IMG/VR virus record: IMGVR_UViG_3300034156_000030
Coordinates: 1-57,263 of that record
Length of the DNA: 57,263 nucleotides
Reading direction: 5' to 3' (one strand)
Origin: a virus
Lineage: Duplodnaviria; Caudoviricetes
Shown: positions 349-31,367 of the stretch, piece after piece
Numbering within the stretch: position 1 is the first letter of the stretch
Layout: every line of letters begins with the position of its first letter
Notes under the pieces: model-generated
Seen by the model: the letters and a program-made list of their open reading frames with translations, nothing else
Told to the model about the DNA's origin: nothing
Databases searched by the model: none
Position numbers and translations under genes: made by a program

Positions 349-2994
349 TTAAGTTTTTAAAGCATTAAATAATGCAGATGTAGAGATGCCTAAAGACTCA
401 GCAACTTCTGATTGAGTATAGCCTGAGGCAAGCATTGCTTTAGCACGACTAACACGAGAAGGTGACATCATAGTAGTTGTTCTAGGTGTTGCAAGTTGTT
501 TAATTCTATCTAAGTTAGTGTTCATTAATATCTGTGTTAATTTAGATGGACTAATAGCACCAGCTTGTATAGCCTCCCATTCTCTATCAGTAAGAGGAAT
601 TGGATCTTTCTTTGCTCCTGTTCTAACTCTAGATTCTGCTAATGCTTGATTGCGAACCTTCTTTAGATCATCAGACTCCATACCTGGATTAGCCTGTTTC
701 TTTCTATCTATAATGGAATTGGCTATAACATGTGCCTGTCTTTCTAAAGGTTTATTTTTAAGAGCATTATTCAACTTAGCATTTAATACATCTACTTCTT
801 TAGCATAAGCAAGTCTTGCTGATGGATTATATGGTGTGGGTATTGTTTCGGCAGCGTTCTTTCTAGATGCATTACCTAAAGACTTCAAATTATTAGCATA
901 GGCGGCATAAACTTCTTCTATTGGTCTTCCAGATGATAATGTAAAAGCATTAGAAGTTTCAGCTATTTTTGTAGATTTTATTTGTCTTACTATTGTTTTA
1001 CCATTCTTATCTACATAAGATTCTCCAGTTTTACTATATACTTTTTTTCCAGTATTAACATCAATTGGTCCACCTTCTGCAGCACTTCTAGGTTTTCTAG
1101 CATCTACTCTTGCCTGTGATGATGCTTTAGATATTAATGTTGATGCTCCACCGCTTGAACTATTCTGATATTTGGCTGATAATGAAGCAATTTTATGGTC
1201 TTTAAAAGATTGTCTATAATCCAAGTTATGCTTCTCACTATCTATAACTACCATAGAATGTCTAACAGCCATACATATCTCATCTAAACTAGCACCTTTA
1301 ATAGTCATATCTGTAATGAGATTACTTGCTTCACCCATTTTTGTCTGTTTAGTTTGTGGTTTAATTGGTTTAATATTAGAACCTTCTGGTATTTTATATG
1401 ATGTAATAGGATCAAAATCTTGTAAATTCTTTAATGATGCTGAAGATTTTATTAAACCTTTACTATTAGGTATTACTATTACGGCATCACCATCAAAGTC
1501 TGCTCCAGAAAGTTTTTGTGCTACTTTGGGATGCATACCTATAGCATCTGGTGCTCCTCCCATAACAGCTATTGCATCTTTATTTTTATTATTTACTATA
1601 ACTTGAGGTATTTCAAATGTTCCACCATGAGGATGTCTAATTAGTACAACTGGTTCACCATTATTAAATGTTGGCGCATATATTTCATTTTCTTTCATAC
1701 CTGGAATTGGTAATATAACTTTTGATGCTTGTCTAGGTAAAGCTGCAGCTTTTAAATGGACAGCTGAACTATCACAATCATCTGCAAATGCTTGTAAAAG
1801 TTGTCTTTTTACAACTGGATTGGTTAATTTATTTATTTCATCAAATTCTTCTTGTTTTAATTTTAGTGATAAATCAAGTTGTCTTTTAGCCAAAGGTACT
1901 GATTGTTTTGATAGGATTTGTGATGATATACTTTTAGACCAAGAGCTCCAATCGCCTTCTTCATTAACGATATTAAGTGCACCACTCTTACGTTTAATGG
2001 TTGCTCCAAACGGACTATCAGAATCGATGTTTGTTTGACCATTTTCATCAGTAGTAGTTTTAAGTTTTTTCATAGCACCTAATTTACCAACATCTTTAGA
2101 TTTATTAGTGTTAAACATAATATCCACACCAATAGGCATTTTATCATTATAAATGGCCATACCTTTTAAATAGTGTGTACCATCAACGCTAATACGAACT
2201 TGAGCATATTGTGAACCGCCCAAATCCAAATCTTTAACGCCTCTTCGAAGTTCTATAACGCCATCTTTCTGTGTTCCACCATCTTCGGAAAAATTAATTT
2301 TAATTCTATTAGAGTCAATGCTATGAATAGTTTTATCTATCTCATTAAATGTTCTTCCAAAATCATTAGAATATGCGTTAATTGCTTTTATTTTTCCTAC
2401 ATCTTTTACGACTTCTGACCAACTAGTATCTGGAGCGCCTAAAACTTTCATAATTGTAAATTGTCCAGGTAATCCAACTTGTTCAACGTTAACTCTATGT
2501 ACTTTATATCCTTGTTCTTGTAACTCAGCAACTGCATTATTTAATTTTGTACGGGTTACGCCAAGATATGTTTCAACACCTGCTCCAACATCAATAAATC
2601 TTTTTTGATCTACATTTTCTTTTAGTATACCAGCAGTTACTTTAGTAATAGATGCTCTTTCCGCTAATATGGGATTAAGTATAGAACGAACAGATGATTC
2701 ATTCATTCCCATTCTTCTGCCAATCTCCATATTAGAATAACCTTTATCTTTAAGTTTTAAAATTTCTGTTCTATCTCCTGCTCTTTTTTCTGATTTAACA
2801 AGTGACATTCTAGCTAATAATACAGTTGTAGTTATGCCTTCTCTTTTCGCTATTTCTAAATTACTTAAACCTTCATCACGAAGTTTTTGAATATGAGCTT
2901 TAAAATCAATAGCTCTTTCATAACCGTCTTTTCCGGAGCCCCATGGATACCTTCCAGATTTTCTAGGCATACCATAATGTTTTATCTCACTCAT
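349..2994 (-). CDS. Single-chain phage RNA polymerase (YonO/RdRP-like double-psi barrel) with HTH domains
   Basis: Catalytic GADFDGD motif preceded by RHPH...E; HTH-like segments near both termini (SNMEIGRRMGMNESSVRSI, TQSEVAESLGISTSAL). Confidence 0.8.
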   Translation of the reverse strand: MSEIKHYGMPRKSGRYPWGSGKDGYERAIDFKAHIQKLRDEGLSNLEIAKREGITTTVLLARMSLVKSEKRAGDRTEILKLKDKGYSNMEIGRRMGMNESSVRSILNPILAERASITKVTAGILKENVDQKRFIDVGAGVETYLGVTRTKLNNAVAELQEQGYKVHRVNVEQVGLPGQFTIMKVLGAPDTSWSEVVKDVGKIKAINAYSNDFGRTFNEIDKTIHSIDSNRIKINFSEDGGTQKDGVIELRRGVKDLDLGGSQYAQVRISVDGTHYLKGMAIYNDKMPIGVDIMFNTNKSKDVGKLGAMKKLKTTTDENGQTNIDSDSPFGATIKRKSGALNIVNEEGDWSSWSKSISSQILSKQSVPLAKRQLDLSLKLKQEEFDEINKLTNPVVKRQLLQAFADDCDSSAVHLKAAALPRQASKVILPIPGMKENEIYAPTFNNGEPVVLIRHPHGGTFEIPQVIVNNKNKDAIAVMGGAPDAIGMHPKVAQKLSGADFDGDAVIVIPNSKGLIKSSASLKNLQDFDPITSYKIPEGSNIKPIKPQTKQTKMGEASNLITDMTIKGASLDEICMAVRHSMVVIDSEKHNLDYRQSFKDHKIASLSAKYQNSSSGGASTLISKASSQARVDARKPRSAAEGGPIDVNTGKKVYSKTGESYVDKNGKTIVRQIKSTKIAETSNAFTLSSGRPIEEVYAAYANNLKSLGNASRKNAAETIPTPYNPSARLAYAKEVDVLNAKLNNALKNKPLERQAHVIANSIIDRKKQANPGMESDDLKKVRNQALAESRVRTGAKKDPIPLTDREWEAIQAGAISPSKLTQILMNTNLDRIKQLATPRTTTMMSPSRVSRAKAMLASGYTQSEVAESLGISTSALFNALKT

Positions 2995-3000
2995 AAAAAG

Positions 3001-3555
3001 TTAACCTCCTATCTTTAATTGTTCTATCCTTTTATCAAATTCGATAATTTTAATCATAATATTCCATATTTCTTCCGGTTCTGGAATATGAATTAAAACT
3101 TCATCCGATTGATATATTCTTAGTTCGGTTTCAATTTCAATAGGTTTAATATTATACTCTAAACAGAATAAAGCATTATAAACCAATAATTGTTTTATAG
3201 ATGCTGGTGTTTCTCCTGTTTTTAAATCATGTATTCTTAAAAAGTTTTTTTTGAAAGATATAGCATCTGCTGTGCCAAAACAATTATCCGAAAAATAGAG
3301 AGGTTGTTCTGTTTGCATTTTAAAACCTATAGCATCATTAACATAAATATTAAATGAATTTCTTGTTTTTGGTAATCTAACTCCAAGTTTTATACATTGT
3401 TTAGCAAGTTCATGTAATTCAGTTCCTTTGGCTGCTGCTAAGTATTTAGAAAATGTAGAAACAAGTTTTTCATCATCATAATTTATCCAATGATATTTAC
3501 TTGCACTTAGAAACGCGTGTAATCCGTCTAATCGAGAATGCTTGTTGAAGTTCAT
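3001..3555 (-). CDS. PD-(D/E)XK (Cas4/lambda-exonuclease-like) nuclease
   Basis: GTELH...E...GTADAI...IHDLKTG...QL..Y motifs. Confidence 0.75.
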   Translation of the reverse strand: MNFNKHSRLDGLHAFLSASKYHWINYDDEKLVSTFSKYLAAAKGTELHELAKQCIKLGVRLPKTRNSFNIYVNDAIGFKMQTEQPLYFSDNCFGTADAISFKKNFLRIHDLKTGETPASIKQLLVYNALFCLEYNIKPIEIETELRIYQSDEVLIHIPEPEEIWNIMIKIIEFDKRIEQLKIGG

Positions 3556-3820
3556 ATAAAACCTCCTCTTTATTTTGAGGACATATCATAGATGCAAAAG
3601 ACATATCATCCATTTTATTTATGTAATATTCTTGGTTTGGTTGATATGGTTCGTTAAGACTTCTTTTACATTCTAATGCTGCCCAATGTTTTTTATATAA
3701 AATTAAAAGGTCAGGAATTCCTTGAACGTATTGTGAATCATTTTTTAAGACTATACATCCAGGAAATATATCTTTAAGCTCTTCAATTAAATCAGCTTGA
3801 AATTTATTTTCTCTAGTCAT
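3497..3820 (-). CDS. VRR-Nuc-like endonuclease (possible Holliday junction resolvase)
   Basis: E..FQ...GIPDL...LECK...PNQ motifs. Confidence 0.8.
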   Translation of the reverse strand: MTRENKFQADLIEELKDIFPGCIVLKNDSQYVQGIPDLLILYKKHWAALECKRSLNEPYQPNQEYYINKMDDMSFASMICPQNKEEVLYELQQAFSIRRITRVSKCK

Positions 3821-3894
3821 ATGATCTCCTTTCTAAAAAAATAAGAATCCAATTCTTAAATTAATTCCTATTAAAGGGACATTTTTTATTCCCC

Positions 3895-3922
3895 TCTATT
3901 ATAGGCCATGTTTTTCACGCGA
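3895..3922 (-). promoter_or_regulatory. Phage promoter motif, copy 1
   Basis: TCGC GTGAAAA AC ATGGCC TATAAT AGA, upstream of the VRR-Nuc, exonuclease and RNAP genes. Confidence 0.75.
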
Positions 3923-3930
3923 GTTTGATA

Positions 3931-9690: not shown

Positions 9691-9713
9691 ATGTTGTCTC
9701 CTTTCTACTATTT

Positions 9714-9907
9714 TGTTACTGTTACACTTTTATTTTAAACTATATTATATATATACTTTTTTCTCACGTGTAAAGGTAAGAAAAAAAGTGTAACAATGTA
9801 ACAAAAAAGCACTAAAATAGACATTTTTTAACAAAAAAGCACTAAAATATCATAATTATACAAAAACACAAAAAACTCGAAAATAAAAGTGTAACAGAAA
9901 GTGTAAC
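9714..9907. repeat. Candidate replication origin (iterons, inverted repeat, AT-rich core)
   Basis: 18-bp perfect inverted repeat (9719-9736 / 9880-9897); 21-bp direct repeat (9799-9819 / 9829-9849); six TGTTAC/GTAACA units; directly upstream of the replicase gene. Confidence 0.65.
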
Positions 9908-9908
9908 A

Positions 9909-13874: not shown

Positions 13875-14825
13875 TTAGACCTTTTGTACTGTGAAAAGAT
13901 CGTAGATAACTCCGTCGACATTAAAGTCAAGTAGGATACTATTTTCATGACCATTTACGAAATCTCTAGCTCTTGGTCTGTCGCCATCAAATATTCCGAA
14001 GTCGATGAAGTCATCACCAGCGCCTAGAACCCAACCAACAACTGCTCCAGCTTGAGACCTAGGAATTCCGAGAGAATCATATACTTCATTTAGGAATACA
14101 TGACCTCTTGCTCTTAACATGTCATTGAAGTAGTTCTGCTGAGCTTTTAAGAACATGAGATTATATTCTGCGGTTTTAGTCCACTGAGAACACATCTGAT
14201 CAAAGAATCTAGCATATGTGCTGAGGCCATTAGGGTCTTGTTCCACGATAGTTTTCTTTTCAGCTTTATGCTTAACACCATCAGTATCTGTGTAGGCGGC
14301 TTGAGTTATTTCATTAGCTCTTAGACCATTTTTATACATGTAGTCAGCTTGTTCTCCATGTTCCTCAACAACTCTCTTACGATATGCTGCAAAGCCCTCT
14401 TCAACCGCTTTAAAGGCTGCTACAAGAGCCAAATTTCTTTTCTTCATGATATTATGCCCACCAATTATACAGGCGATAGACGCGGCTCCTATAGCGATAG
14501 GAAGGCCATACAATTTTAGTAGTTCTGCGCCAGTTTGAAGATATGTTACCGCCAAATCTTTTCTTTTGTCGTTTTCAGTGTACTCATCTCTAGATATGGT
14601 TCCGTCTAATACCATATCCCAGCCCTCATGAACTTTATCAATCTTATCTTTATGTTCGTCTAAAACATACTCAATCTTTAGAGTTGCTTGACAAGCTAAC
14701 ACGGTTGATGTAATTATGCCGATTACACCAACTCCCAATAATAACTCAGGACTATTTTTTTGCAAGGCTAGTCCACTAGTACCCTTTAATTTAGCAAGAC
14801 CGTTCGTAACTTTTTCGAAATTCAT
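13875..14825 (-). CDS. DUF6353-like phage protein (paralog of 24909)
   Basis: KNSPELL.G.G, two hydrophobic helices, GHVFLNEVYDSLG, LDFNVDG motifs. Confidence 0.7.
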   Translation of the reverse strand: MNFEKVTNGLAKLKGTSGLALQKNSPELLLGVGVIGIITSTVLACQATLKIEYVLDEHKDKIDKVHEGWDMVLDGTISRDEYTENDKRKDLAVTYLQTGAELLKLYGLPIAIGAASIACIIGGHNIMKKRNLALVAAFKAVEEGFAAYRKRVVEEHGEQADYMYKNGLRANEITQAAYTDTDGVKHKAEKKTIVEQDPNGLSTYARFFDQMCSQWTKTAEYNLMFLKAQQNYFNDMLRARGHVFLNEVYDSLGIPRSQAGAVVGWVLGAGDDFIDFGIFDGDRPRARDFVNGHENSILLDFNVDGVIYDLFTVQKV

Positions 14826-14863
14826 AATAATATTCTCCTCTCAAAATACGGTTAATGTTGGTG

Positions 14864-14931
14864 AAAAAAGAAGAGTGTTGATTATTTTACTAATCTTGAT
14901 TCCTGTCTGCACATGGGAATCCATACTCTTC
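14864..14931 (-). ncRNA. Candidate structured small RNA A (three-way junction, ~68 nt)
   Basis: Starts immediately after a promoter motif; GAAGAGU/ACUCUUC closing stem, two internal hairpins, then a U6 tract; no RBS or ORF. Confidence 0.6.
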
Positions 14932-14956
14932 ATTAAACACCATGTTATTTCTGCGA
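14929..14956 (-). promoter_or_regulatory. Phage promoter motif, copy 2
   Basis: TCGC AGAAATA AC ATGGTG TTTAAT GAA. Confidence 0.75.
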
Positions 14957-19384: not shown

Positions 19385-19412
19385 TTCATTATAGGACAAG
19401 TTATTGGCGCGA
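19385..19412 (-). promoter_or_regulatory. Phage promoter motif, copy 3
   Basis: TCGC GCCAATA AC TTGTCC TATAAT GAA. Confidence 0.78.
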
Positions 19413-19506: not shown

Positions 19507-21300
19507 TTATATTTTATAAGTTTTTCTGTCTTTGAATTCTTGTTGTTTACCATCATTCCAATTTTGTACTGGGCGATAGTAACCTGTAATACGGCTGAAT
19601 ATTTCTGTTTTTCTACCACATGTAGGACACACATCTACTTCTCCATTTAAGTATCCGTGCGAAGAGCAAATAGAATATGTAGGTGATAACGTAAAATATG
19701 GTAGTTTATAATTCTCAGCTACCTTTTTTACTATACCTGCTGCAGTTTGCCAATCAGGAAGTTTCTCACCAACAAAACCATGAAATACAGTTCCTGAAGT
19801 ATACAGGATTTGAAGGTCGTCTTGTATTTCAAGAGCATCAAACATGTTGTCTGTATATCCAACTGGAAGATTACTAGAGTTGGTATAATACGGCGTAATT
19901 TCTTCTCTAGCATTGAATATATTATCAGTCACAATATCTGGGTATAATGTCTTGTCTTTTTTGGCAAATCGATAAGCAGTAGATTCGGCAGGGGTAGCTT
20001 CTAGATTATACAAGTCACCATATTGTTCCTGGTAATCACTTAATCTCAAACGAATGTGATTTAGTATATCCTTAGCAAAGTCTTGACTAACCGCATTGTG
20101 TAATGTCTTACCAATCCAATTAGCATTCAAACATGCTTCATTTATCCCAACAACACCTATTGTCGAGAAATGATGGTCAAAAGAGCCAAGATATCTTTTT
20201 GTGTATGGATATAATCCAATATTCAAAAGTTTAGTGATATACTCTCTTTTGAGTTTAAGAGACCTGGCGGAAATATCAAGTAATACATCGAGTCGTCCAT
20301 AGAAGTCTTTTTCGTCTTTAGCCAGATATGCAATTCTTGGAATATTCACAGTTACAACACCAACTGAACCAGTTGATTCACCAGAGCCAAAGAAGCCACC
20401 AGATTTTTTACGCAATTCTCTAAGGTCTAATCTTAATCTACAGCACATCGAACGAACATCACTTGGGTCCATATCTGAGTTGATATAGTTAGAAAAATAT
20501 GGCGTTCCATATTTAGCAGTCATTTCAAAGAGAAGACCGTTATTTTCAGTGTCAGACCAATCAAATTCTTTTGTGATGGAATATGTTGGTATAGGATATT
20601 GAAATCCTCGTCCATTAGCATCGCCCTCTAACATAATTTCAAGGAAGGCTTTATTAACCAAGTTCATTTCTTGCTGACAATCTTTATATTTGAAGTCCAT
20701 TTGGAATCCACCAACCATAGCAGGAAGTTCAGATAAATCTTTTGGTACAACCCAATCTAATGTTATATTACAGAAAGGCGATTGAGTTCCCCAACGAGAT
20801 GGAGTATTTATTCCAAATATGAACGATTGTATGCATTGTTTTACATCTTTATAAGACATATTATCAACCTTAACAAAAGGCGCCAAATATGTATCAAAAG
20901 AAGAGAATGCTTGTGCTCCAGCCCATTCATTTTGCATTATTCCAATAAAGTTAACCATCTGATTACACAAAGTAAAAAGATGTTTAGCAGGTGCGGATGA
21001 TATTTTACAATCTACTCCGCCTACGCCTTCTTGAATAATTTGCATCAAACTCCATCCAGCACAATATCCAGTTAACATTGATAAATCGTGCAAATGAATA
21101 TCAGCCTTTTTATGAGCGTCGGCAATTTCTTTATCATATACTTTAGAGAGCCAGAATTCTTTAGTTATCTCTCCAGAATTTGAGATTATGAGTCCACCTA
21201 TAGAATAGTTGACAGTGCTGTTTTCTTTAACATTCCAACTGCTTCTATCGATGTAATCTTCTATCAACTTAATGTTTCTTATATTCATAGAAACCTCCAA
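19507..21300 (-). CDS. nrdD: Anaerobic (class III) ribonucleoside-triphosphate reductase, no ATP cone
   Basis: HLHDL...YC.G, SMCCRL, TPAES, C..HG...CP.CG, SRITGYYRP glycyl-radical motif. Confidence 0.95.
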   Translation of the reverse strand: MEVSMNIRNIKLIEDYIDRSSWNVKENSTVNYSIGGLIISNSGEITKEFWLSKVYDKEIADAHKKADIHLHDLSMLTGYCAGWSLMQIIQEGVGGVDCKISSAPAKHLFTLCNQMVNFIGIMQNEWAGAQAFSSFDTYLAPFVKVDNMSYKDVKQCIQSFIFGINTPSRWGTQSPFCNITLDWVVPKDLSELPAMVGGFQMDFKYKDCQQEMNLVNKAFLEIMLEGDANGRGFQYPIPTYSITKEFDWSDTENNGLLFEMTAKYGTPYFSNYINSDMDPSDVRSMCCRLRLDLRELRKKSGGFFGSGESTGSVGVVTVNIPRIAYLAKDEKDFYGRLDVLLDISARSLKLKREYITKLLNIGLYPYTKRYLGSFDHHFSTIGVVGINEACLNANWIGKTLHNAVSQDFAKDILNHIRLRLSDYQEQYGDLYNLEATPAESTAYRFAKKDKTLYPDIVTDNIFNAREEITPYYTNSSNLPVGYTDNMFDALEIQDDLQILYTSGTVFHGFVGEKLPDWQTAAGIVKKVAENYKLPYFTLSPTYSICSSHGYLNGEVDVCPTCGRKTEIFSRITGYYRPVQNWNDGKQQEFKDRKTYKI

Positions 21301-21421: not shown

Positions 21422-21862
21422 TCATATCAATCCTTTCTCTATTTTTATTATTTGTTGGTTGCTACTACCATACATTTTACCAGTTATTATATTATTAATT
21501 TCAAATTTACCATCAACAATATAATCAACCATATTAGCTAATTCTGTATGTTTTATATCTTTATATTTAAAACCTGTATAAATCCATACATTTAAATGTT
21601 TAGGTAGAAGTTTTAAAAGTTCTATACACTTATCTTGCTGAAAGAAAGGATCACCTCCGGATAGAGTTATACCATCTAAGTAAGTATATTTTTTTATGTC
21701 GTCTAGAAGTTCCTGTGTTGATATCTCTTTACCACCATTAAAATTCCATGAGTCTGGATTCTGACACCCGTCACAATGATGTCTACATCCCTGACAAAAT
21801 ATGACATAGCGAGTTCCATAACCATTAATAAATGAGCAATTTAATGTTCCTGCTATTCTCAT
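21422..21862 (-). CDS. nrdG: Class III RNR activase (radical SAM)
   Basis: NG.G.R...F.QGC.H.C.GCQN, LSGGDP, GSSNQ. Confidence 0.95.
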   Translation of the reverse strand: MRIAGTLNCSFINGYGTRYVIFCQGCRHHCDGCQNPDSWNFNGGKEISTQELLDDIKKYTYLDGITLSGGDPFFQQDKCIELLKLLPKHLNVWIYTGFKYKDIKHTELANMVDYIVDGKFEINNIITGKMYGSSNQQIIKIEKGLI

Positions 21863-21864
21863 GA

Positions 21865-22386
21865 TTAACCTAACCTTTTATTTTTTAATTTTTGTTTTAA
21901 TTTCTTTAATTGTTTATCTTTATACATTAAAATATCAGCCTCAAACATAGCAAAGCCAATAGTTTCGTTTGCTGTTTTATGTGTAGTTCCTATTGCAGCT
22001 TCTGAAAATATGTGAAATATCGGTGATACACTGAACACTAAGAATTCATCTCCTCCTAATCTAAATACTAATTCCGAAGTTAATTGTAACGTGTCAGCAA
22101 TGTCTCTTATCAGTATATCACCAGCCTGATGACCTTCTAAATCATTAATTTGCTTTAATCCGTTAATATCAATAATAGAAACATACATATCCATATTATC
22201 ATATTTATTACGGAATTCTTCCAACATATTTCTATTGTATACACCAGTTAATTTATCAGTAAAAGCAAGTTTATAAAGTTCGTCTTTAGTTTTATCAACA
22301 TACGTAGATGTTAAAACAAAAGTTGGCTTGTTAAATAGAACTTTGTAGAGAATACTTTTAAACAATGATAATACAGATTTTAACAT
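21865..22386 (-). CDS. GGDEF-domain diguanylate cyclase
   Basis: D.LTGVYNR, IDINGLKQIND..GH.AGD, RLGGDEF, AD..MY..K. Confidence 0.9.
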   Translation of the reverse strand: MLKSVLSLFKSILYKVLFNKPTFVLTSTYVDKTKDELYKLAFTDKLTGVYNRNMLEEFRNKYDNMDMYVSIIDINGLKQINDLEGHQAGDILIRDIADTLQLTSELVFRLGGDEFLVFSVSPIFHIFSEAAIGTTHKTANETIGFAMFEADILMYKDKQLKKLKQKLKNKRLG

Positions 22387-22406
22387 TATAATCTCCCCTT
22401 TTTTGT

Positions 22407-22445
22407 AAAAAAGAGAAGATGCTTAAATCTCTTTAAACATCTTTC
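22407..22445 (-). terminator. Terminator hairpin (duplicate 1)
   Basis: AAGATGTTTAAA GAGA TTTAAGCATCTT CTCTTTTTT; differs from the 22653 copy by one loop base. Confidence 0.7.
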
Positions 22446-22459
22446 TTGGTTAATGGTTA

Positions 22460-22642
22460 CTACAGTGAATACATATTTTTGCAATAGCAACGATGTGAAT
22501 AATTTGCTTCCTTTATTTTTTGTCTGGCCTCTGCTCTTTTAACTTGCCTAGATTTGGGTCTCAAGAAAACCACAACAGGATGAAATAGGAATTTAAAATA
22601 CTTAATAAACCTTTTAATCAATTCAATCATTAGGATTACCAC
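22460..22642 (-). CDS. Small basic hypothetical protein
   Basis: GAAAGGTG RBS; followed by a terminator. Confidence 0.55.
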   Translation of the reverse strand: MVILMIELIKRFIKYFKFLFHPVVVFLRPKSRQVKRAEARQKIKEANYSHRCYCKNMYSL

Positions 22643-22652
22643 CTTTCAACTT

Positions 22653-22690
22653 AAAAAGAGAAGATGCTTAAATTTCTTTAAACATCTTTC
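22653..22690 (-). terminator. Terminator hairpin (duplicate 2)
   Basis: AAGATGTTTAAA GAAA TTTAAGCATCTT CTCTTTTT. Confidence 0.7.
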
Positions 22691-22706
22691 TGATTGATAG
22701 TTTCAA

Positions 22707-22950: not shown

Positions 22951-22978
22951 TTCATTATAGTCCTTGTATTTTTTGCGA
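22951..22978 (-). promoter_or_regulatory. Phage promoter motif, copy 4
   Basis: TCGC AAAAAAT AC AAGGAC TATAAT GAA. Confidence 0.78.
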
Positions 22979-23628: not shown

Positions 23629-24126
23629 TTAATTAGACGTTGAACCAAGCCCACCAATTCTTTCTTCACATAGCGGTATATCATCATCAGCCAGTAGGTA
23701 GTTATAGAATGTTCCTTGTGCAATAGCATCTCCAGCTTTTACATCAAATATTTTATTACCAGTATTTACTAGTTTTAGGAAAATATGACCTTCATTTTTT
23801 ATATTGTTATAATAGTCTGAATCAACTTTTCCTATGGTGTTAGCGATTTGAATTCCATATTTGAAACTTATGCCACTTTTTGGGAATATTAATAATTCCT
23901 CATCATCCAGCATATAAGCCTTTATTCCAAGAGGTATAACAATATCTTCTCCTGGTAATAGTGTAAAACTGCAAGGGGCATATAAATCATATCCAGAACT
24001 TCTTCTTGTTGCTCTTTTTGGTGTTTTTATATTGCAATAATCATGATTTTTATCCATACCAACATCTTTTAAATATTGAAGCATTGAAATTACTTCAAAT
24101 CCGCGTGTTTTGATCATAATAATCAT
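23629..24126 (-). CDS. dut: Trimeric dUTPase
   Basis: S.GYDL, PKSG, G.VDSDYY, IAQG, R.GG.GST. Confidence 0.92.
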   Translation of the reverse strand: MIIMIKTRGFEVISMLQYLKDVGMDKNHDYCNIKTPKRATRRSSGYDLYAPCSFTLLPGEDIVIPLGIKAYMLDDEELLIFPKSGISFKYGIQIANTIGKVDSDYYNNIKNEGHIFLKLVNTGNKIFDVKAGDAIAQGTFYNYLLADDDIPLCEERIGGLGSTSN

Positions 24127-26345: not shown

Positions 26346-27119
26346 TTATTCTTTATTATTGATATGTATATCAGCAAGTGATTTATATTCAACTTTACCT
26401 ATAGCTTTTAAATTGTCGGAAAGTGTGTCATATTTAACATTTGGAAATTCAATACCTTTAAGAATATCATCTAACTCGGGTTTAGTATCATATGTCCAAT
26501 AAGCACAAAGCATATTCCAGACGAATGCTCTATCATGTGGTTCGTCCGTATCGCCCCTTAGATGTTTGAGAAAATGCCTAACACCAGAATCAATGTAACA
26601 ATGTAGTGGCATTCCTTTCATCCAATTATTTTCACAATATTTTTTAGCACCATCTTCAAAGTGTATTGATACTTCCAACATCAAAGTTGTTAAATTCGTT
26701 TTTTCATTATCCGCAAAAATACAAAGTGCCTGATTCAAAAATGCTGTATTTTTTGTTCTTTTGAAATGCTCAATAGAGTTTAATTCATCCCTCATAAGAA
26801 TTCTTGATAGTACACTTAATGGTAATAAATCACATCTACCTTTTCCATCACTGATATCTCTTACTGCACCTGTACCAAAATCTCTTCTTTCGCCATTGTC
26901 TTTTAAATCCATAGTTAATACCTCTCCTTCTTTATTTGTAAAGAATACTGTGTTACCAATATCATCTTGTAAGAAGTCTATGTGTCGACACGATTCATAT
27001 CTAACTCTAAATGTTGAAAAAGTGACTGCGATAACTTCCCCAAATATGGTAGTAGTATGTCCATTATAAGGTCTATATACTGTCGCCTTAATAAAATCTC
27101 CAATTTTAGCACTAATCAT
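26346..27119 (-). CDS. dATP/dGTP diphosphohydrolase (DUF5664-like) with N-terminal SH3-like domain
   Basis: F.TGAVRD...GKGR.DLLP, GAKKY..NNW.KG, S..RH...D.DE.H...WN; internal RBS and ATG at 26912. Confidence 0.8.
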   Translation of the reverse strand: MISAKIGDFIKATVYRPYNGHTTTIFGEVIAVTFSTFRVRYESCRHIDFLQDDIGNTVFFTNKEGEVLTMDLKDNGERRDFGTGAVRDISDGKGRCDLLPLSVLSRILMRDELNSIEHFKRTKNTAFLNQALCIFADNEKTNLTTLMLEVSIHFEDGAKKYCENNWMKGMPLHCYIDSGVRHFLKHLRGDTDEPHDRAFVWNMLCAYWTYDTKPELDDILKGIEFPNVKYDTLSDNLKAIGKVEYKSLADIHINNKE

Positions 27120-27217
27120 TATTTCACCTCCATTATTATGATTTATATATTAAATATAACCTTATTTTGACCTTAAAATAGGTTAAAAATGACCAAATTA
27201 ACAATAGGGCATATAGA

Positions 27218-27328
27218 AGCCATTTTAAGCGTTTTTACCCTTTACAGGTCATATTATATTACCTACTAATCAAAAGTGTCTTAGAATCAATCCTCAGAGG
27301 TCGTTTTTTCTAAAAGTGCGAAAAAAAT
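27218..27328. repeat. 111-bp direct repeat, copy 1 (palindromic core)
   Basis: Matches 30637-30747 with 3 mismatches by eye. Confidence 0.9.
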
Positions 27329-27338
27329 TAAAAATTAT

Positions 27339-27397
27339 AGAAATAGTACGAAGTGCAGTCCTTTATTTTCGGATATGCACTCCCATATACTATTCTT
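27339..27397 (-). other. Long interrupted hairpin
   Basis: AAUAGUA/UACUAUU, GGAGUGCA/UGCACUUC and UCC/GGA stacked stems. Confidence 0.55.
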
Positions 27398-27454
27398 GTT
27401 AAATTCACATGATACTCACTCCTTTAATTACTTATGTGTGATATTAGAAAATAT

Positions 27455-27515
27455 AAAAAGTAAGTATAGATATTTAACTATCTAATTACGCACCTTACAT
27501 ACGTACTTACCTCTC
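27455..27515 (-). ncRNA. Candidate structured small RNA B (three-way junction, ~61 nt)
   Basis: Follows a promoter motif; GUAAGUA/UACUUAC closing stem, CGUAU/GUGCG and UAGAUA/UAUCUA hairpins, then a U tract. Confidence 0.6.
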
Positions 27516-27540
27516 ATTAGAGGATGTGTTTTTATCGCGA
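27513..27540 (-). promoter_or_regulatory. Phage promoter motif, copy 5
   Basis: TCGC GATAAAA AC ACATCC TCTAAT GAG. Confidence 0.75.
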
Positions 27541-27662
27541 GAATATTAAAAGTAATATGGAAAACATCATCAATGTTAATGCTAATGCTAATGCTATTAG
27601 AACTAATATAATTCCTTTAATAATATTATCAAAGAAGTTTTTAATATAATCATCTCCTTGTG

Positions 27663-27742
27663 AAAAAAAGAGTCTTCGGATTCGAACCGATTTCGCCATT
27701 ATTGCTAATGGTGTTTTACTTTTTTAAACTAGCTCACTCTTC
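27663..27742 (-). ncRNA. tRNA-like RNA with non-canonical anticodon arm and acceptor stem
   Basis: UA-GUUU...AAAC D arm, CCAUUA-GCAA-UAAUGG arm, UCGG-UUCGAAU-CCGA T arm, AAGAGU/ACUCUU end stem, U7 tract; no encoded CCA. Confidence 0.7.
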
Positions 27743-28228
27743 ACTATAGACTGTGTTATTCTTGCGATCTTGTATGAATACCCATTTACCAATATCTTGA
27801 AAATTAAAAGTTTCATAATGTCTTTCTCCCACATATGTAACTATAAAGGTATATTCATCCATTTGTGTGATTTTACCAAATCTCATTTTACTACCATTAT
27901 GAGGTTTCACACTAACTGAATCTCCAATAGAACAGACAGCCACTGCAAAGTGCATAAGATTTAATACTTTATCTTTTTTCTTCTGTATCATTTCTTTAAT
28001 AGAAACTGAATCACAATCCGTTACATATACGTCTTGTTTATCGCATTCCTCTTTAACTAGTTCATAGACAGCCCTAACGTCTATAAATTCTTGTTGCATT
28101 TTATCAACACTAGAGGGCTCTCGATTCCATTTGTTATCTATTCCAAAGCGTATAGCTTTAGAAGCTTCTTTTTGTAACTCACTACACTCTTCCATTAAAC
28201 AAACTAATAAATATTCTACTTTAGTCAT
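27734..28228 (-). CDS. MazG-like NTP pyrophosphohydrolase with C-terminal SH3-like domain
   Basis: LMEECSELQKEASKAIRFG...EFIDV (EExxE...ExxD). Confidence 0.7.
   Translation of the reverse strand: MTKVEYLLVCLMEECSELQKEASKAIRFGIDNKWNREPSSVDKMQQEFIDVRAVYELVKEECDKQDVYVTDCDSVSIKEMIQKKKDKVLNLMHFAVAVCSIGDSVSVKPHNGSKMRFGKITQMDEYTFIVTYVGERHYETFNFQDIGKWVFIQDRKNNTVYSEE
27740..27767 (-). promoter_or_regulatory. Phage promoter motif, copy 6 (drives the tRNA-like RNA)
   Basis: TCGC AAGAATA AC ACAGTC TATAGT GAA, embedded in the 3' end of the MazG-like ORF. Confidence 0.72.
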
Positions 28229-28241
28229 GTTTTATTCTCCT

Positions 28242-28757
28242 TTAAAAACGATATTTAATAGTAAACTGTATTTCTGGTAAATCAATTATTTTTTGTTTTG
28301 ATATATGAAACCAATCCTTGTCACAAATATCGGGTGTTAAGCCATATTCAGGGTTACTTCTAATTTCTTTTAATTCACCAGAAAGTCTTGCTCTTAGTAA
28401 ATAAAACCAACACGGTTCAAACGCAAAACTTAATTTATCAGCCCAGCATAATTTACTAATATCCACATGTACTAATTTAGCATAAGACCTCGAATGACCT
28501 GCACATAATAAATATTCTTTGTGAGAGAATAACATACCTGCTATTTTGGCGCCTAATGCTGGATGATATTTACCTTCATCCATTCGTTCACCATCTAAAT
28601 TAGGTTTACCAAAATATCCCCAATCATGTATGAATATACATATAAGTTCTTTAAAGGATGGTCGTCCGTATAAATATAACCAAGCTCTGCAGACTACAAA
28701 TGGATGCCAGAATATTTGGTGTATTCCAAATAACAAACTTTTTGTACCAATTTTCAT
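28242..28757 (-). CDS. HD-domain phosphohydrolase-like protein
   Basis: H...IHDWG...HP..GA...H....ADK metal-ligand pattern. Confidence 0.65.
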   Translation of the reverse strand: MKIGTKSLLFGIHQIFWHPFVVCRAWLYLYGRPSFKELICIFIHDWGYFGKPNLDGERMDEGKYHPALGAKIAGMLFSHKEYLLCAGHSRSYAKLVHVDISKLCWADKLSFAFEPCWFYLLRARLSGELKEIRSNPEYGLTPDICDKDWFHISKQKIIDLPEIQFTIKYRF

Positions 28758-28775
28758 AATTATTTCTCCTTTCAA

Positions 28776-29012
28776 TTAACATTGCCAATTTAATAGCTCG
28801 ATATGAATATCTAACTTTGTTAAAAATATTAAATCTTTTTTAAATTTAGCCCATTTATTAGTCTTTCCATAAATGTTTATTTGCACATAATCATCAGTTA
28901 ACATAAAATATGATACTGAAAAATCATATGTTTTAGCTAAATTAATAATCTTTAAATAGTCTTCATTTTTTAATCTAGTTTTTATGTCTGATATAAATGT
29001 TTTCATAAACAT
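28776..29012 (-). CDS. Hypothetical protein
   Basis: 78 aa with GGAAGGA RBS. Confidence 0.55.
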   Translation of the reverse strand: MFMKTFISDIKTRLKNEDYLKIINLAKTYDFSVSYFMLTDDYVQINIYGKTNKWAKFKKDLIFLTKLDIHIELLNWQC

Positions 29013-29332
29013 ATCCTTCCTCTTATTAAATTACATTTATTTCTTTGGTTTACCAATAGTTAGACTAGTGTCAATATTAGTAGTAATACTAAATGCTATT
29101 TTGTTACTAATGGACAGTCCTATACAAATACCACCGATAATAGAACCTCCAATGATTATCATATTTACCATAATAATAGTTTTAATCATATATAAACCCC
29201 CTTATCCATAATAATTTCGTCTGTATATAATCTTTGCTTTATAACCGTTAATACGTAATAACCAATAAGTAAAACGTGCATCTTCTGATATTGAATATCC
29301 TTCTATTCCATAATCCCAAATTACAATCCACA

Positions 29333-29518
29333 TTATGTATTAGGTTTGATTTCTACGAACAATTTACAACAACATTGATTGTTTTCTCTCTTCTTTTTGC
29401 ATGGGCAAATAGTGTCTACTGACCACTCATGTGCCGGTACACATGGACATTGACCGTCTGTAATTCTTAATCGATCTTCTATTGCACTCACTATTTTCTT
29501 ATCTGGATTTAATTTCAT
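29333..29518 (-). CDS. Ferredoxin:thioredoxin reductase catalytic-subunit-like Fe-S protein
   Basis: CPC-x10-CPC-x8-CCC.LF matches the FTR CPC/CPC/CxC pattern; AGGAGG RBS. Confidence 0.8.
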   Translation of the reverse strand: MKLNPDKKIVSAIEDRLRITDGQCPCVPAHEWSVDTICPCKKKRENNQCCCKLFVEIKPNT

Positions 29519-29530
29519 TATATTTCCTCC

Positions 29531-29815
29531 TTAAAATTTTACTTTAATTAATTTCTCTGGATTTAATGCTGACCAATTTTCGTAAAGTTCTTTCAATTTT
29601 ATGTCAGGAAATTCTTGGTTACACCATTTCATTGTCTCTTCAAAACTGATTATCGCGCCTACTCTAACACCTTTCATAAATATTTTTTTACACATATAGA
29701 AAGTACCTAAAGTTAAAACCCCACAACCAGCCATTAATGCAATTATTTGTAACTCTCTTTTGTTTTTCTTTAAAAAATCAATTTTGTGATCTTTCATATT
29801 TATTACTTTTCCCAT
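29531..29815 (-). CDS. Single-TM membrane protein
   Basis: Start moved to MGKVIN after the GAAAGGG RBS. Confidence 0.6.
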   Translation of the reverse strand: MGKVINMKDHKIDFLKKNKRELQIIALMAGCGVLTLGTFYMCKKIFMKGVRVGAIISFEETMKWCNQEFPDIKLKELYENWSALNPEKLIKVKF

Positions 29816-29852
29816 TATAATCACCCTTTCAAAATATTTATATATTAGCGAC

Positions 29853-30005
29853 AAAAAAAGAATCCGTAATCGCATCGAACGATTTTGCTGCCCAACTAAT
29901 TGTTTGGCTACCTATGACAGTGCCAAGACAGTCCGTATTTGAGTTCTAGTGCTACCTAGTCTTTATTCTATGGACATTTACATTCCATACAACTCTATTC
30001 TTTTC
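29853..30005 (-). ncRNA. Candidate structured RNA C (~153 nt, multi-domain, with a T-arm-like hairpin)
   Basis: Follows a promoter motif; AAAAGAAU/AUUCUUUU end stem, three-way junction, second helical domain, AAUCG-UUCGAUG-CGAUU hairpin, U7 tract. Confidence 0.65.
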
Positions 30006-30030
30006 ATTATAGTAAATGTAATTTTCGCGA
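30003..30030 (-). promoter_or_regulatory. Phage promoter motif, copy 7
   Basis: TCGC GAAAATT AC ATTTAC TATAAT GAA. Confidence 0.78.
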
Positions 30031-30033
30031 GCC

Positions 30034-30054
30034 AAAGAAAGAGACTTATGTCTC
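30034..30054 (-). terminator. Intrinsic terminator with stop codon in the loop
   Basis: GAGAC ATAA GTCTC TTTCTTT. Confidence 0.7.
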
Positions 30055-30273
30055 ATTTTCTTTTGATTCTAATTTCTTTTTTAATACTTCATTTTCTTTT
30101 GATGTTTTTATTAATTCTTTTTTAAATGCCTCTGCAACGATAGCCCAGGTTACTTCACTTTCTTTAGATTTGTTATTGGTTTTACTTATTATAACACATC
30201 CTATGAAAACTCCAAGTCCTAGACCCACTAATGCAACATTTAAACTTAATTTTGATAATAATTTATCATTCAT
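30046..30273 (-). CDS. Small TM plus coiled-coil protein
   Basis: Own promoter, AGGAGG RBS and terminator. Confidence 0.7.
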   Translation of the reverse strand: MNDKLLSKLSLNVALVGLGLGVFIGCVIISKTNNKSKESEVTWAIVAEAFKKELIKTSKENEVLKKKLESKENET

Positions 30274-30300: not shown

Positions 30301-30328
30301 TTCATTATAAGCTAAGTTTTTTGTGCGA
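30301..30328 (-). promoter_or_regulatory. Phage promoter motif, copy 8
   Basis: TCGC ACAAAAA AC TTAGCT TATAAT GAA. Confidence 0.78.
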
Positions 30329-30347
30329 AAGAAGAAGCCTAAGCTTC
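30328..30347 (-). terminator. Intrinsic terminator with stop codon in the loop
   Basis: GAAGC TTAG GCTTC TTCTTT, abutting the next TCGC. Confidence 0.7.
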
Positions 30348-30512
30348 CACTACTTTTCTTTTTAATTTTTCCAGTTTCTTTTGTTGAACTTTTTGTTCTG
30401 TTTCTAAGAACTTGTTGTAAGCGTCAATACCATATTTACACGATGTGTTATTATAGCAATATCTGCATTTACTTCCATTAGTTTCTTTAAAACATATATC
30501 ATATTTTTCCAT
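30339..30512 (-). CDS. 57-aa Cys4 protein (not in the ORF track)
   Basis: MEKYDICFKETNGSKCRYCYNNTSCKYG...VVEA; own promoter, AGGAGG RBS and terminator. Confidence 0.7.
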   Translation of the reverse strand: MEKYDICFKETNGSKCRYCYNNTSCKYGIDAYNKFLETEQKVQQKKLEKLKRKVVEA

Positions 30513-30534: not shown

Positions 30535-30562
30535 TTCATTATAATATATGTTTTATATGCGA
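30535..30562 (-). promoter_or_regulatory. Phage promoter motif, copy 9
   Basis: TCGC ATATAAA AC ATATAT TATAAT GAA. Confidence 0.78.
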
Positions 30563-30636
30563 AATACATCAAATTAAGCCCTAAAAGACCCCTATTTTGA
30601 CCTAAAATAGACCAAATCAACGCTAAGGCCAATAGG

Positions 30637-30747
30637 AGCCATTTTAAGCGTTTTTACCCTTTACAGGTCATATTATATTACCTACTGATCAAAAGTGTCT
30701 TAGAATCAATCCTATGAGGTCGTTTTTTCTAAAAGTGCGAAAAAAAT
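30637..30747. repeat. 111-bp direct repeat, copy 2
   Basis: Matches 27218-27328 with 3 mismatches. Confidence 0.9.
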
Positions 30748-30760
30748 AAGATAAATAGAG

Positions 30761-30790
30761 AAAAAAGGAAAAGCGTGTTATTACACACGC
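30761..30790 (-). terminator. Intrinsic terminator with stop codon in the loop
   Basis: GCGTGT GTAATA ACACGC TTTTCCTTTTTT. Confidence 0.7.
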
Positions 30791-31065
30791 AATTTAAGTA
30801 ACGTACTCATAGCCTTAGTAGTGATTATATCTATTTGCTCATGTTTCAGTATTAAAACTGTCTGAACTATTGTTCCAACTATTAACATCACTGTATTAAG
30901 ATCTATACTTTTATCTTTCTGATAGCTATTCGCTTTCATTAGTATATCCAAATTTTGTGACATATTGTTGTATTCAACAGAATCAGGTTTTACCTCACTC
31001 ATGCTAGCTATTAAATTGCTAATTACTTTGTCTATTTTATTGTCTTTCTTAAATGGGTTTTTCAT
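30781..31065 (-). CDS. Conserved phage protein with C-terminal hydrophobic helix
   Basis: SVEY..M..NL..L...I..HEQ..IITTKA motif. Confidence 0.7.
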   Translation of the reverse strand: MKNPFKKDNKIDKVISNLIASMSEVKPDSVEYNNMSQNLDILMKANSYQKDKSIDLNTVMLIVGTIVQTVLILKHEQIDIITTKAMSTLLKLRV

Positions 31066-31093
31066 ATTCGCTCATCCTTTCTATTTTTTATTC

Positions 31094-31121
31094 TTCATTA
31101 AAGGATAAGTTTCTGACGCGA
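31094..31121 (-). promoter_or_regulatory. Phage promoter motif, copy 10
   Basis: TCGC GTCAGAA AC TTATCC TTTAAT GAA. Confidence 0.78.
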
Positions 31122-31140
31122 AAAAAGAAGCCTAAGCTTC
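31121..31140 (-). terminator. Intrinsic terminator with stop codon in the loop
   Basis: GAAGC TTAG GCTTC TTTTTT, abutting the next TCGC. Confidence 0.72.
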
Positions 31141-31311
31141 CTTGTGATTGAGTTTCTTTAAATTATCGTTCTCGATAAATACTTCATTTTCAAATTGTGC
31201 AATGTAGTACTGGTCAATTTCTTGAATTGTACGTATAGCCGCATTTAAAGATGCTACCGTATCATTTTTATTATTGGTCATTACTGCAACTACAGTTCTT
31301 TTTGTTTTCAT
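31132..31311 (-). CDS. Small hypothetical protein, first gene of the early region
   Basis: Start MKTKRT after AAAGGAG; own promoter and terminator. Confidence 0.65.
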   Translation of the reverse strand: MKTKRTVVAVMTNNKNDTVASLNAAIRTIQEIDQYYIAQFENEVFIENDNLKKLNHKEA

Positions 31312-31339
31312 ATAAATCGTCTCCTTTAATTTAATGTAT

Positions 31340-31367
31340 CTCACTAAAGGGCAAGTTTATTACGCGA
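31340..31367 (-). promoter_or_regulatory. Phage promoter motif, copy 11 (late/early boundary)
   Basis: TCGC GTAATAA AC TTGCCC TTTAGT GAG. Confidence 0.75.

Follow-up and report, generated by a model that had tools for sequence, protein, structure and literature searches.

Which RNA polymerase reads the promoter-like motif that recurs along the early half of the viral record IMGVR_UViG_3300034156_000030, and could it be the one that the virus itself encodes? The window, which is the entire record (57,263 bp, estimated completeness 96%), carries all its genes on the minus strand. The half that is read first on this strand, from 57098 down to 31400, contains the structural and lysis genes (terminase, portal, protease/capsid, tail genes, holin and amidase), and the other half, from 31367 down to 36, contains small open reading frames (ORFs), nucleotide-metabolism genes and replication genes. 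Eleven copies of the motif lie in this second half, which ends with ORF 349-2994, the gene of a predicted single-chain RNA polymerase, and one small ORF. The comparisons described below make it likely that the eleven sites are promoters read by this polymerase without a host sigma factor, with the RNA starting at the purine after TATAAT.

The pattern TCGC-N7-AC-N6-TNTANT has 11 matches in the window, all on the minus (coding) strand, and none on the forward strand. In 100 dinucleotide shuffles of the window the expectation is 0.07 and the largest count is 1 (0/100 reach 11), and the reversed pattern gives 1/0 matches on the forward/reverse strand. These matches are the same eleven copies at fixed spacing that the original prediction had listed, with coordinates each 3 lower because the trailing GAA or GAG had been counted in. 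GA[AG] follows 10 of the 11 sites, as had been noted, the exception being the site at 3898 with AGA. T.TA.T is found in 11/11 sites and the full TATAAT in 6/11, and the second hexamer position is not A in 4/11. A weight matrix of 41 columns, built from the 11 sites and scanned over both strands, scores the sites themselves at 30-41 bits and detects no further or degenerate copies at 8 bits or more on either strand. The motif class thus has sharp limits and does not extend into the structural half (no site in 31400-57263), in line with the earlier statement that the structural module has none. The sites are listed below, and are otherwise named by their lower coordinates.

31343..31367, minus strand: site 1 (TCGCGTAATAAACTTGCCCTTTAGT), predicted +1 the G at 31342, ribosome-binding site (RBS) at +17; the first site after the lysis cassette.
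31097..31121, minus strand: site 2, predicted +1 at 31096, a GAAGC..GCTTC hairpin upstream, RBS at +16, ORF 30781-31065 next.
30538..30562, minus strand: site 3, predicted +1 at 30537, RBS at +12, ORF 30339-30512 next.
30304..30328, minus strand: site 4, predicted +1 at 30303, a hairpin of the site-2 type upstream, RBS at +18, ORF 30046-30273 next.
30006..30030, minus strand: site 5, predicted +1 at 30005, a non-coding RNA of ~150 nt next.
27743..27767, minus strand: site 6 (TATAGT), predicted +1 at 27742, overlapping the final codons of ORF 27734-28228.
27516..27540, minus strand: site 7 (TCTAAT), predicted +1 at 27515.
22954..22978, minus strand: site 8, predicted +1 at 22953, RBS at +17, a small membrane-type ORF next.
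19388..19412, minus strand: site 9, predicted +1 at 19387, RBS at +13, an ORF ending at 19022 next.
14932..14956, minus strand: site 10 (TTTAAT), predicted +1 at 14931.
3898..3922, minus strand: site 11, of an 'A-start' subclass (TATAAT followed by AGAGG), ahead of the operon of endonuclease, exonuclease, polymerase and ORF 36-275.

All sites are intergenic or at ORF ends, and their placement upstream of an RBS or a structured RNA agrees with the first description. Six (31343, 31097, 30538, 30304, 22954 and 19388) are followed by an RBS after 12-18 nt and five (30006, 27743, 27516, 14932 and 3898) by a structured non-coding stretch with a T-run end. A hairpin lies just upstream of four sites, and some of the sites are recent duplicates that include the upstream hairpin (families D4 and D6). 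One such terminator-like hairpin, GAAGC-TTAG-GCTTC, recurs with little change at 30334-30347 and 31127-31140, directly upstream of the sites at 30304 and 31097. A site of the A-start subclass is located ~0.9 kb upstream of the polymerase gene in 10/20 related loci.

The upstream part of the motif had been said not to be a sigma-A -35 element, and neither a TTGACA-like hexamer at 16-18 nt nor a TGn extension is present at any of the 11 sites. A loose 9-of-12 sigma filter is passed by three sites only, each with a weak first hexamer: TTGGCT at 30006 and TTAACT at 22954, both paired with the site's own TATAAT, and TTGATG at 30538, paired with a TATATT (30548-30543) five bases upstream of the TATAAT of that site. 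Matches of the sigma-70 type are not enriched over shuffles in three scanned regions (36 vs. 42.6, 25 vs. 34.1 and 109 vs. 99.9). One strong canonical sigma-A-type candidate on the coding strand (TTGACA-17-TATATT, minus strand, 17375-17347) is found in the gap before thyX (16700-17317) and is unlike the motif class.

The proposed reader is encoded at the far end of the window, where the gene order is helicase, VRR-Nuc-type endonuclease, exonuclease, the 881-aa protein and a 79-aa ORF. The operon behind site 11 comprises the last four of these genes.

3497-3820, minus strand: endonuclease.
3001-3555, minus strand: exonuclease.
349..2994, minus strand: predicted single-chain two-barrel RNA polymerase, 881 aa, with tandem N-terminal helix-turn-helix (HTH) domains at ~aa 30-165, DFDGD at aa 499-503 and C-terminal HTHs at ~aa 800-880.
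36..275, minus strand: conserved small ORF of 79 aa that comes immediately after the polymerase gene (PHROG 4303, E 1.2e-37).

The DFDGD-containing protein of the original prediction is thus the 881-aa product, with the loop at residues 499-503. D499-F-D-G-D503 is invariant in 11/11 aligned homologues, as expected of a metal-binding DxDGD loop. The protein matches PHROG 4291 ('RNA-dependent RNA polymerase') with E=0, residues 3-880 aligning to positions 11-906 of the 909-position profile. Pfam detects HTH_23 (2e-10) and Sigma70_r4_2 (2e-6, with a score just above the cut-off, 27.8 vs. 25.7 bits), and an RdRP match around the DFDGD loop falls below the cut-off (0.0014). NCBIfam gives a weak sub-threshold match to the tandem-HTH protein Cbp1. 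A structural model of the protein (AlphaFold2; predicted local distance difference test, pLDDT, 71; predicted template-modelling score, pTM, 0.39) is of low confidence, and its fold matches solved two-barrel polymerases. The best Foldseek match in the PDB is QDE-1 (PDB 7y7t and others, E 3.5e-6 to 4.2e-5 over 7 chains, probability 1.0), followed by the RNA polymerases P32 gp64 (2.9e-3) and P74 gp62 (7.5e-3); P23-45 gp96 was also matched, as were, further down, cellular polymerases through their largest subunits (Pol II, Pol IV and bacterial beta-prime chains). Because of the invariance of DFDGD and the Foldseek matches, the modelled product of ORF 349-2994 is regarded as a single-chain two-barrel polymerase. 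The earlier assignment to a 'YonO/RdRP-like type' holds at the level of the fold and the catalytic loop only, and the best structural matches are QDE-1 and the Thermus-phage polymerases. A sequence search of the PDB returned only weak, implausible matches (CdiA, E 0.011), and a BFVD fold search returned only short HTH-domain matches.

Homologues of the polymerase were found by tblastn in 250 of 50,697 deposited phage records. The homologues from phages of Arthrobacter, Gordonia, Streptomyces, Rhodococcus, Microbacterium and Curtobacterium are 48-53% identical to it, those from human oral and gut contigs 43-49%, and those from Lactococcus 1706-like phages 37-38%. Bacillus is not among the ten named organism groups (of twelve) in these matches, and megablast with 20 kb of the window yielded no match among deposited phages. 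In the relatives the large genes invariably end with that of the polymerase, which is preceded by helicase, endonuclease and exonuclease. The accessible part of Koert et al. (bioRxiv 10.1101/842583) describes the family as the protein by which the actinophage supercluster AM/AU/AW/DJ/CC/EL/BI, together with Lactococcus 1706 and Faecalibacterium FP_oengus, can be recognised ('signature protein'), notes the HTH domains and the DxDGD loop, and suggests from this loop and HHpred that the protein may have polymerase activity. SEA-PHAGES records label the protein 'HTH DNA-binding domain protein'. The peptide HYGxPRxSGRYPWGSG at residues 6-21 is invariant in 11/11 aligned homologues and predicted to be disordered (pLDDT 31-39), and it could serve as a signal for packaging, for ejection or for binding of a partner. 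One related record (G025) contains two other ORFs, of 192 and 204 aa, which resemble the first 47-81 residues of the polymerase. ORF 36-275 has no Pfam or NCBIfam match. A small gene occupies its position in all annotated relatives, and the counterpart is listed as a conserved hypothetical protein in the accessible part of Koert et al. (10.1101/842583). A role as polymerase cofactor is possible.

The whole records of the relatives were scanned with the relaxed pattern TCGC-N15-TNTANT, with matches counted on the coding/opposite strand. Oral D_HF5_2C has 4/0, Streptomyces phage Scap1 5/0, Arthrobacter phage Mudcat 4/0, Gordonia phage Kenosha 7/0, Rhodococcus phage ReqiPoco6 11/0 and Lactococcus phage 1706 1/0. 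Five metagenomic records have 6/0 (G001), 5/0 (G002), 7/0 (G003), 8/0 (G004) and 1/0 (G005). Reversed-pattern controls in these records give 0-2. The lineage consensus is TCGC-R-N3-AWWW-ACA-N3-CC-TATAAT followed by four purines, with the same spacing as in the window. In each genome examined, the first of the sites follows immediately on the tail or lysis genes. All the Kenosha (7) and Mudcat (4) sites are intergenic, 9-133 nt ahead of the next annotated start codon, with distances of 24-25 nt for 5/7 Kenosha sites and 27-35 nt for 3/4 Mudcat sites. All five Scap1 sites (L011 2721-6931) are followed by an identical leader of 11 nt, GAGACCCCTAC.

The motif diverges in the Lactococcus phages. 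Phage 1706 has three more sites in which the upstream box is TCAC, TTGC or CCAC and the core TTTTACA-N3-CC/GC/AC-TATAGT is kept. Phage P078 (L187/L009) has eight identical or near-identical core copies, TACAT[AG]CCCTATAATGA, on the coding strand (controls 0), with a T-rich stretch in place of TCGC; the complete absence of TCGC parallels its more divergent polymerase (37% identity). Across the sequences compared, the core (ACA, three bases, CC, TATAAT and purines) is universal, and the TCGC box is missing only from the branch whose polymerase has diverged most. Conservation was determined in 40 unique coding-strand sites from 437 kb chosen by polymerase or accession, which has four matches on the other strand. 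C13 is conserved in 98%, A12 in 82%, A14 in 80% and C19 in 78%, and positions 8-11 are A/T-rich. Larger tallies of 449 and 523 sites have the same consensus and are biased because part of their sequence was selected by the motif. The related genomes range in GC content from 0.33 to 0.60, and their hosts belong to the Actinobacteria and the Firmicutes. Thus, in the direction from polymerase to motif, the co-occurrence proposed earlier is found throughout: the coding strand of every polymerase-bearing genome examined has the motif, in its usual or in a diverged form.

The same relation was found from motif to polymerase. The strict pattern TCGCRN6ACAN4CTATAATG, scanned over IMG/VR, occurs in at least 113 stretches, many of them multi-copy, and the polymerase was looked for (E<=1e-5) in the 77 records behind the 80 listed loci. 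It is encoded by 53/77 of these records and by 27/27 of those that are at least 90% complete. The 24 polymerase-negative records are all fragments of at most 69% completeness, and 11 of them contain the DNA polymerase of the lineage. The reversed pattern occurs in 36 stretches, all single-copy, with the polymerase in 0/36 records (0/6 complete ones). The motif is thus not equally common in phages that lack the polymerase, which the original prediction had named as an outcome that would speak against it (27/27 near-complete records with polymerase vs. 0/36 controls), and in both directions the motif is present with the polymerase and absent without it.

The structured RNAs behind five of the sites bear on where transcription would start.

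29852..30005, minus strand: unit of ~150 nt after site 5; its 5' end (+1/+2) pairs with the stretch just before a run of seven Ts.
27663..27742, minus strand: tRNA-like unit of 80 nt, with a 7-bp closing stem from +1 (GAAGAGU/ACUCUU[U]), a T-arm-like GGTTCGAATCC hairpin and a tail of seven Ts instead of CCA.
27453..27515, minus strand: unit of 63 nt after site 7, with a closing helix of 12-13 bp from +1 and a T-run end.
14863..14931, minus strand: unit of 69 nt after site 10, a three-way junction closed by GAAGAGU/ACUCUUC from +1, with a run of six Ts; it precedes ORF 13875-14825 (DUF6353).
3835..3897, minus strand: leader after site 11, with two hairpins and a run of seven Ts, between site 11 and the endonuclease RBS.

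Three of the five fold clearly better than shuffled sequences (z -3.2 to -3.75): 29856-30005, whose closing helix starts from +1 (-38.2 kcal/mol, z -3.17, 1/200 shuffles as good), 27453-27515 (-18.0 kcal/mol, z -3.75, 1/200) and 14863-14931 (-18.4 kcal/mol, z -3.28, 0/200). The other two do not: the tRNA-like unit has a cloverleaf-like fold of -14.6 kcal/mol with a z of only -1.18, and the leader, at -13.7 kcal/mol and z -1.27, is weak alone. Hairpins with a T-run are present at the same place as this leader, with different sequences, in five related loci (L017, L019, L025, L026 and L032), and the leader could be an attenuator or a source of small RNA. ARAGORN found no tRNA genes in the window, and neither ARAGORN nor Rfam called the tRNA-like unit; Rfam has nothing at gathering scores over the whole window and nothing at E<=1 over 27000-30100. 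A further non-coding element of 145 nt is present in two copies with 92% identity (27184-27328 and 30603-30747, minus strand). It consists of AAGACA-N18-TATAAT followed directly by ATGACC...GGTCAT and a T-run, without the TCGC and ACA boxes, and its closing stem likewise starts right after a TATAAT. Neither the five RNAs nor the 145-nt repeat had a blastn match in 1.35 Mb of related loci.

In line with the first description, the closing stems of four of the downstream RNAs begin at +1 or +2 after the hexamer. Across the family, with 13 upstream bases left free to pair, the helix that reaches the T-run begins at +1 in 18 of 49 non-coding units and within -6 to +4 in 39 of 49, and an independent helix scan places its start at +1 in 18/52. 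A start 6-9 nt downstream would take away the 5' arm of the closing helices. The end of the hexamer forms a pyrimidine-purine step, followed by the four-purine run: in the 40 sites chosen by polymerase or accession, and not by motif, purines make up 97-100% at +1 to +4 and 55-65% thereafter, with no purine preference 6-8 nt past the hexamer. The second position is the most conserved one in sigma-70 -10 elements. In the family-wide tally all six hexamer positions are about equally conserved (77-85%; TATAAT in 289/523), and this flat profile, together with a second position other than A at four of the window sites, supports a difference between the hexamer and a typical sigma-A -10. These indirect indications point to an RNA start at the base right after the hexamer.

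A motif in many copies on the coding strand upstream of genes is what is expected of a promoter. The original prediction, that it is the promoter of the phage RNA polymerase, gains support from the co-occurrence in both directions and from the conservation across phyla. The retention of TCGC, ACA and their exact spacing in genomes of 33-60% GC and two host phyla points to a phage-encoded reader, and a host-specific factor is made less likely by conservation over two host phyla. No sigma-70 or HTH family was detected by Pfam (E<=0.01) in 56 other early and 23 late ORFs, a scan that small regulators can escape and that left the tape-measure gene and NrdD outside. A phage-encoded sigma factor was rejected as the reader, since Pfam finds no sigma family in these early and late ORFs. 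The polymerase is the only phage protein with a detectable HTH domain, of which it has several, and it is the only DNA-binding protein in the lineage core as listed in the accessible part of Koert et al. (10.1101/842583). We infer that its HTH domains read the motif. The fused HTH domains would bind duplex DNA at TCGC (-25 to -22) and ACA (-14 to -12), the AT-rich TATAAT (-6 to -1) would melt, and the RNA would start with G or A within the four-purine run (GARA). The promoters would drive the small early genes after the lysis cassette, several operons of nucleotide metabolism and replication, the five small structured RNAs and the operon that holds the polymerase gene itself. The polymerase and the motif would then probably constitute a self-contained transcription system.

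Several points weigh against this assignment. In both host phyla the sigma-A -10 consensus is universally TATAAT, so that the host holoenzyme could read the downstream half of the motif, and a G just after a -10 could be a discriminator contact rather than +1. The purine run pairs readily with any pyrimidine- or T-rich terminator tail, and the closing helix extends to -3, into the hexamer, in 8/49 units. Since the polymerase marks a syntenic lineage in its entirety, its co-occurrence with the motif does not distinguish it from the other core genes and could also reflect common descent of promoter-leader cassettes. The model of the polymerase has a pTM of only 0.39, TM-scores to QDE-1 of ~0.2 and an identity of 11-14%, and the model of the N-terminal domain (pLDDT 83) has no fold match at E<=0.001, the best being winged-helix proteins (TFIIE-alpha and RTP) at E>=0.16. 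There is no motif ahead of the 26-kb structural module, which leaves late transcription unexplained; transcripts of the last operon that run on across joined genome ends are a possible route. The polymerase gene lies behind the motif-type site at 3898, so that an enzyme that is not in the virion would need another way of first being made. The only pointer to a virion association is a GenBank product name.

The last two points concern the entry of the enzyme. In the GenBank record of Lactococcus phage 1706 the homologue is named 'structural protein', as are two other genes outside the structural module, and in the ReqiPoco6 record this label was taken over by similarity. The labels of the 1706 record are said to come from virion mass spectrometry. 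On the strength of the depositor's label for the 1706 homologue, the polymerase may, as a weaker reading, travel inside the virion and begin early transcription as soon as it enters the cell; if it were injected, the bootstrapping problem of site 3898 would disappear. A still more speculative combination would be a virion-carried 880-aa two-barrel polymerase, fully independent of sigma, which finds the 25-bp TCGC...ACA...TATAAT promoter through its own HTH array, starts right after the AT-rich element, works unchanged from Streptomyces to Clostridia-like Firmicutes, and makes early mRNAs and short tRNA-like or Y-shaped RNAs with paired 5' and 3' ends.

The most serious alternative, which we consider unlikely, is that the host sigma-A holoenzyme reads TATAAT as a -10 and starts 6-9 nt downstream, with a conserved phage factor at TCGC...ACA replacing the -35 contact, as MotA/AsiA do at T4 middle promoters. 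TATAAT is indeed the commonest hexamer in the window (6/11) and family-wide, and with a start of the sigma type the TCGC box would lie at ~-31 to -28, where a -35 substitute is expected; lacking a -35 and a TGn, such promoters would need an activator. A candidate for this factor is the 881-aa protein, acting through its HTH part; one of its HTHs exceeds the Pfam cut-off for Sigma70_r4_2, SEA-PHAGES names the protein simply after its HTH domain, and the two-barrel domain would then serve otherwise. However, the strict conservation of the DFDGD loop and the two-barrel fold would be unexplained in a mere activator, which would moreover need a conserved contact surface on the RNA polymerases of two phyla. 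The flat hexamer profile, the excess of purines at +1 to +4 rather than 6-8 nt past the hexamer, and the 5' arms that the downstream RNAs would lose are also contrary to a start of this type. No MotA- or AsiA-like protein was detected by Pfam among the early and late ORFs.

Far less probable are ordinary host sigma-A promoters, composed of a -10 and an A/T-rich upstream region, that are alike through inherited or duplicated promoter-leader cassettes and involve no phage factor. The perfect or near-perfect hexamers, the A/T-rich positions 8-11, the recent duplication of some window sites with their upstream hairpin (D4, D6) and the identical leader at all Scap1 sites would fit such an origin. 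However, a sigma-A promoter with nothing but a -10 is not expected to be strong (PMC7229825, in its accessible part), and the sole strong canonical candidate in the window looks quite different from the motif. TCGC and C13 (98% of 40 sites) are fixed across 33-60% GC and two host phyla although neighbouring bases vary freely, which indicates selection on those bases and not recent copying. It is highly improbable that the motif is no promoter at all and marks a recombination boundary, forms an operator set or, like the start-associated sequences of cluster K mycobacteriophages, is a repeat tied to translation or regulation: the fixed distance to start codons in Kenosha and the recurrence at module boundaries would fit, but five window sites precede non-coding structured RNAs and not genes (for which the translation-associated repeat was set aside), four follow terminator-like hairpins, the motif ends in an AT-rich melting element and a purine run, and the strict single-strand orientation fits transcription.

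Other features of the window were recorded beside the motif and the polymerase.

21868-22386: gene of a short GGDEF-domain protein (173 aa, E 4.6e-16) in the early/middle region, adjoining the anaerobic ribonucleotide reductase genes and dUTPase gene listed next.
21425-21862: NrdG-type gene.
19507-21300: NrdD-type gene.
23632-24126: dUTPase gene.
22397-22446 and 22642-22691: near-unchanged terminator-like hairpins AAGATG..CATCTT with CTCTTTTT.
9691-9908, minus strand: iteron-like repeats TGTTACAC(T) and TTTTAGTGCTTTTTTGTTA in a 218-nt AT-rich gap ahead of the gene of a 1322-aa DNA primase/polymerase; a candidate replication origin.
51958-52413, within ORF 49713-52487: tandem repeat with steps of 9 and 36 nt, the collagen-like Gly-X-Y domain of a 924-aa late protein.
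57099-57263, minus strand: inverted repeat of ~20 bp (TAGGAGTTGAGAAGATACTA ... TAGTATCTTTTCAACTCCTA) ahead of the first gene.
1-35, minus strand: hairpin GGAGGGG...CCCCTCC at the opposite end of the record; this hairpin and the inverted repeat are possible genome-end or packaging features.

Comparison with known systems places the proposed polymerase-promoter pair among several that it resembles in part. Promoters of the T7/SP6 class are likewise compact (~20-25 bp) and have an AT-rich element immediately ahead of a start rich in purines. In N4 or crAss-like phages an injected virion polymerase transcribes the early genes, a delivery that is only inferred for the window phage. The folds of the T7, SP6 and N4 enzymes are unrelated to that of the window polymerase, and crAss-like gp66 is much larger. 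T4 middle promoters combine a MotA box with a sigma-70 -10 and so have a phage-specific box in place of the -35, as does the window motif; they differ in being read by the host polymerase with two small phage proteins. QDE-1 of Neurospora, the best structural match, shares the two-barrel catalytic core according to the model, but is a eukaryotic RNA/DNA-dependent enzyme of RNA silencing without promoter use.

Closer in function are YonO and P23-45 gp96 and gp64, which are DNA-dependent transcriptases of phage genes (PMC5467207 and PMC10770324, in their accessible parts). According to the accessible part of PMC10770324, the P23-45 virion polymerase gp96 and non-virion polymerase gp64 have AT-rich and GC-rich promoter motifs. 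The P23-45 system resembles that of the window in its single-chain two-barrel phage polymerases with a DFDGD-type loop and in a conserved motif of its own upstream of early genes, found only in relatives that carry the enzyme (the same part of PMC10770324). However, the P23-45 enzymes have no detectable sequence similarity to the ORF 349-2994 product, which has fused N- and C-terminal HTHs and is not fused to a tape-measure protein. The window motif resembles a sigma-A -10 preceded by TCGC/ACA, and its lineage infects mesophilic Gram-positive bacteria of two phyla. YonO of the Bacillus prophage SPbeta is also a single-chain DNA-dependent RNA polymerase of ~100 kDa, a distant relative of the multisubunit enzymes that transcribes phage genes (accessible part of PMC5467207). 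It serves one late operon, and the promoter sequence is left open in that part of PMC5467207, whereas the window motif is multi-copy and lies in the early/middle half. The HTH-RdRP proteins of Koert et al. belong to the same family as the window polymerase (48-53% identity to the actinophage members) and share its genome position and synteny.

The protein family and its suggested polymerase activity were already known; what the present analysis adds is the promoter motif, its connection with the enzyme and the predicted position of the start. No description of the motif was found in the accessible literature; the papers on phage 1706 and on ReqiPepy6/Poco6 (Garneau 2008, Summer 2011) and all supplements were beyond reach, so an earlier mention is possible. 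The word 'promoter' has 0 occurrences in the accessible text of Koert et al. (10.1101/842583), the Arthrobacter phage survey (PMC5513430) and the Gordonia phage survey (PMC5559632).

Few single-chain relatives of the cellular RNA polymerases are known, and promoters have been described for the two P23-45 enzymes and not for YonO. With the predicted consensus and start site, a large and easily cultured lineage, comprising student-isolated phages of Arthrobacter, Gordonia and Streptomyces as well as dairy Lactococcus, gut and oral phages, opens to tests of sigma-free DNA recognition and melting by a minimal two-barrel enzyme, of HTHs as a substitute for sigma, and of injection of the enzyme with the DNA. 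If the combined picture of a virion-carried, sigma-independent enzyme were true, the HTH array, together with the upstream box, would amount to a natural equivalent of sigma built into a single polypeptide. Assignment of the motif to the polymerase would, if true, correct the widespread annotations 'HTH DNA-binding protein' and 'RNA-dependent RNA polymerase', explain the gene-expression programme of these phages, and provide a compact polymerase-promoter pair that may function across Gram-positive phyla.

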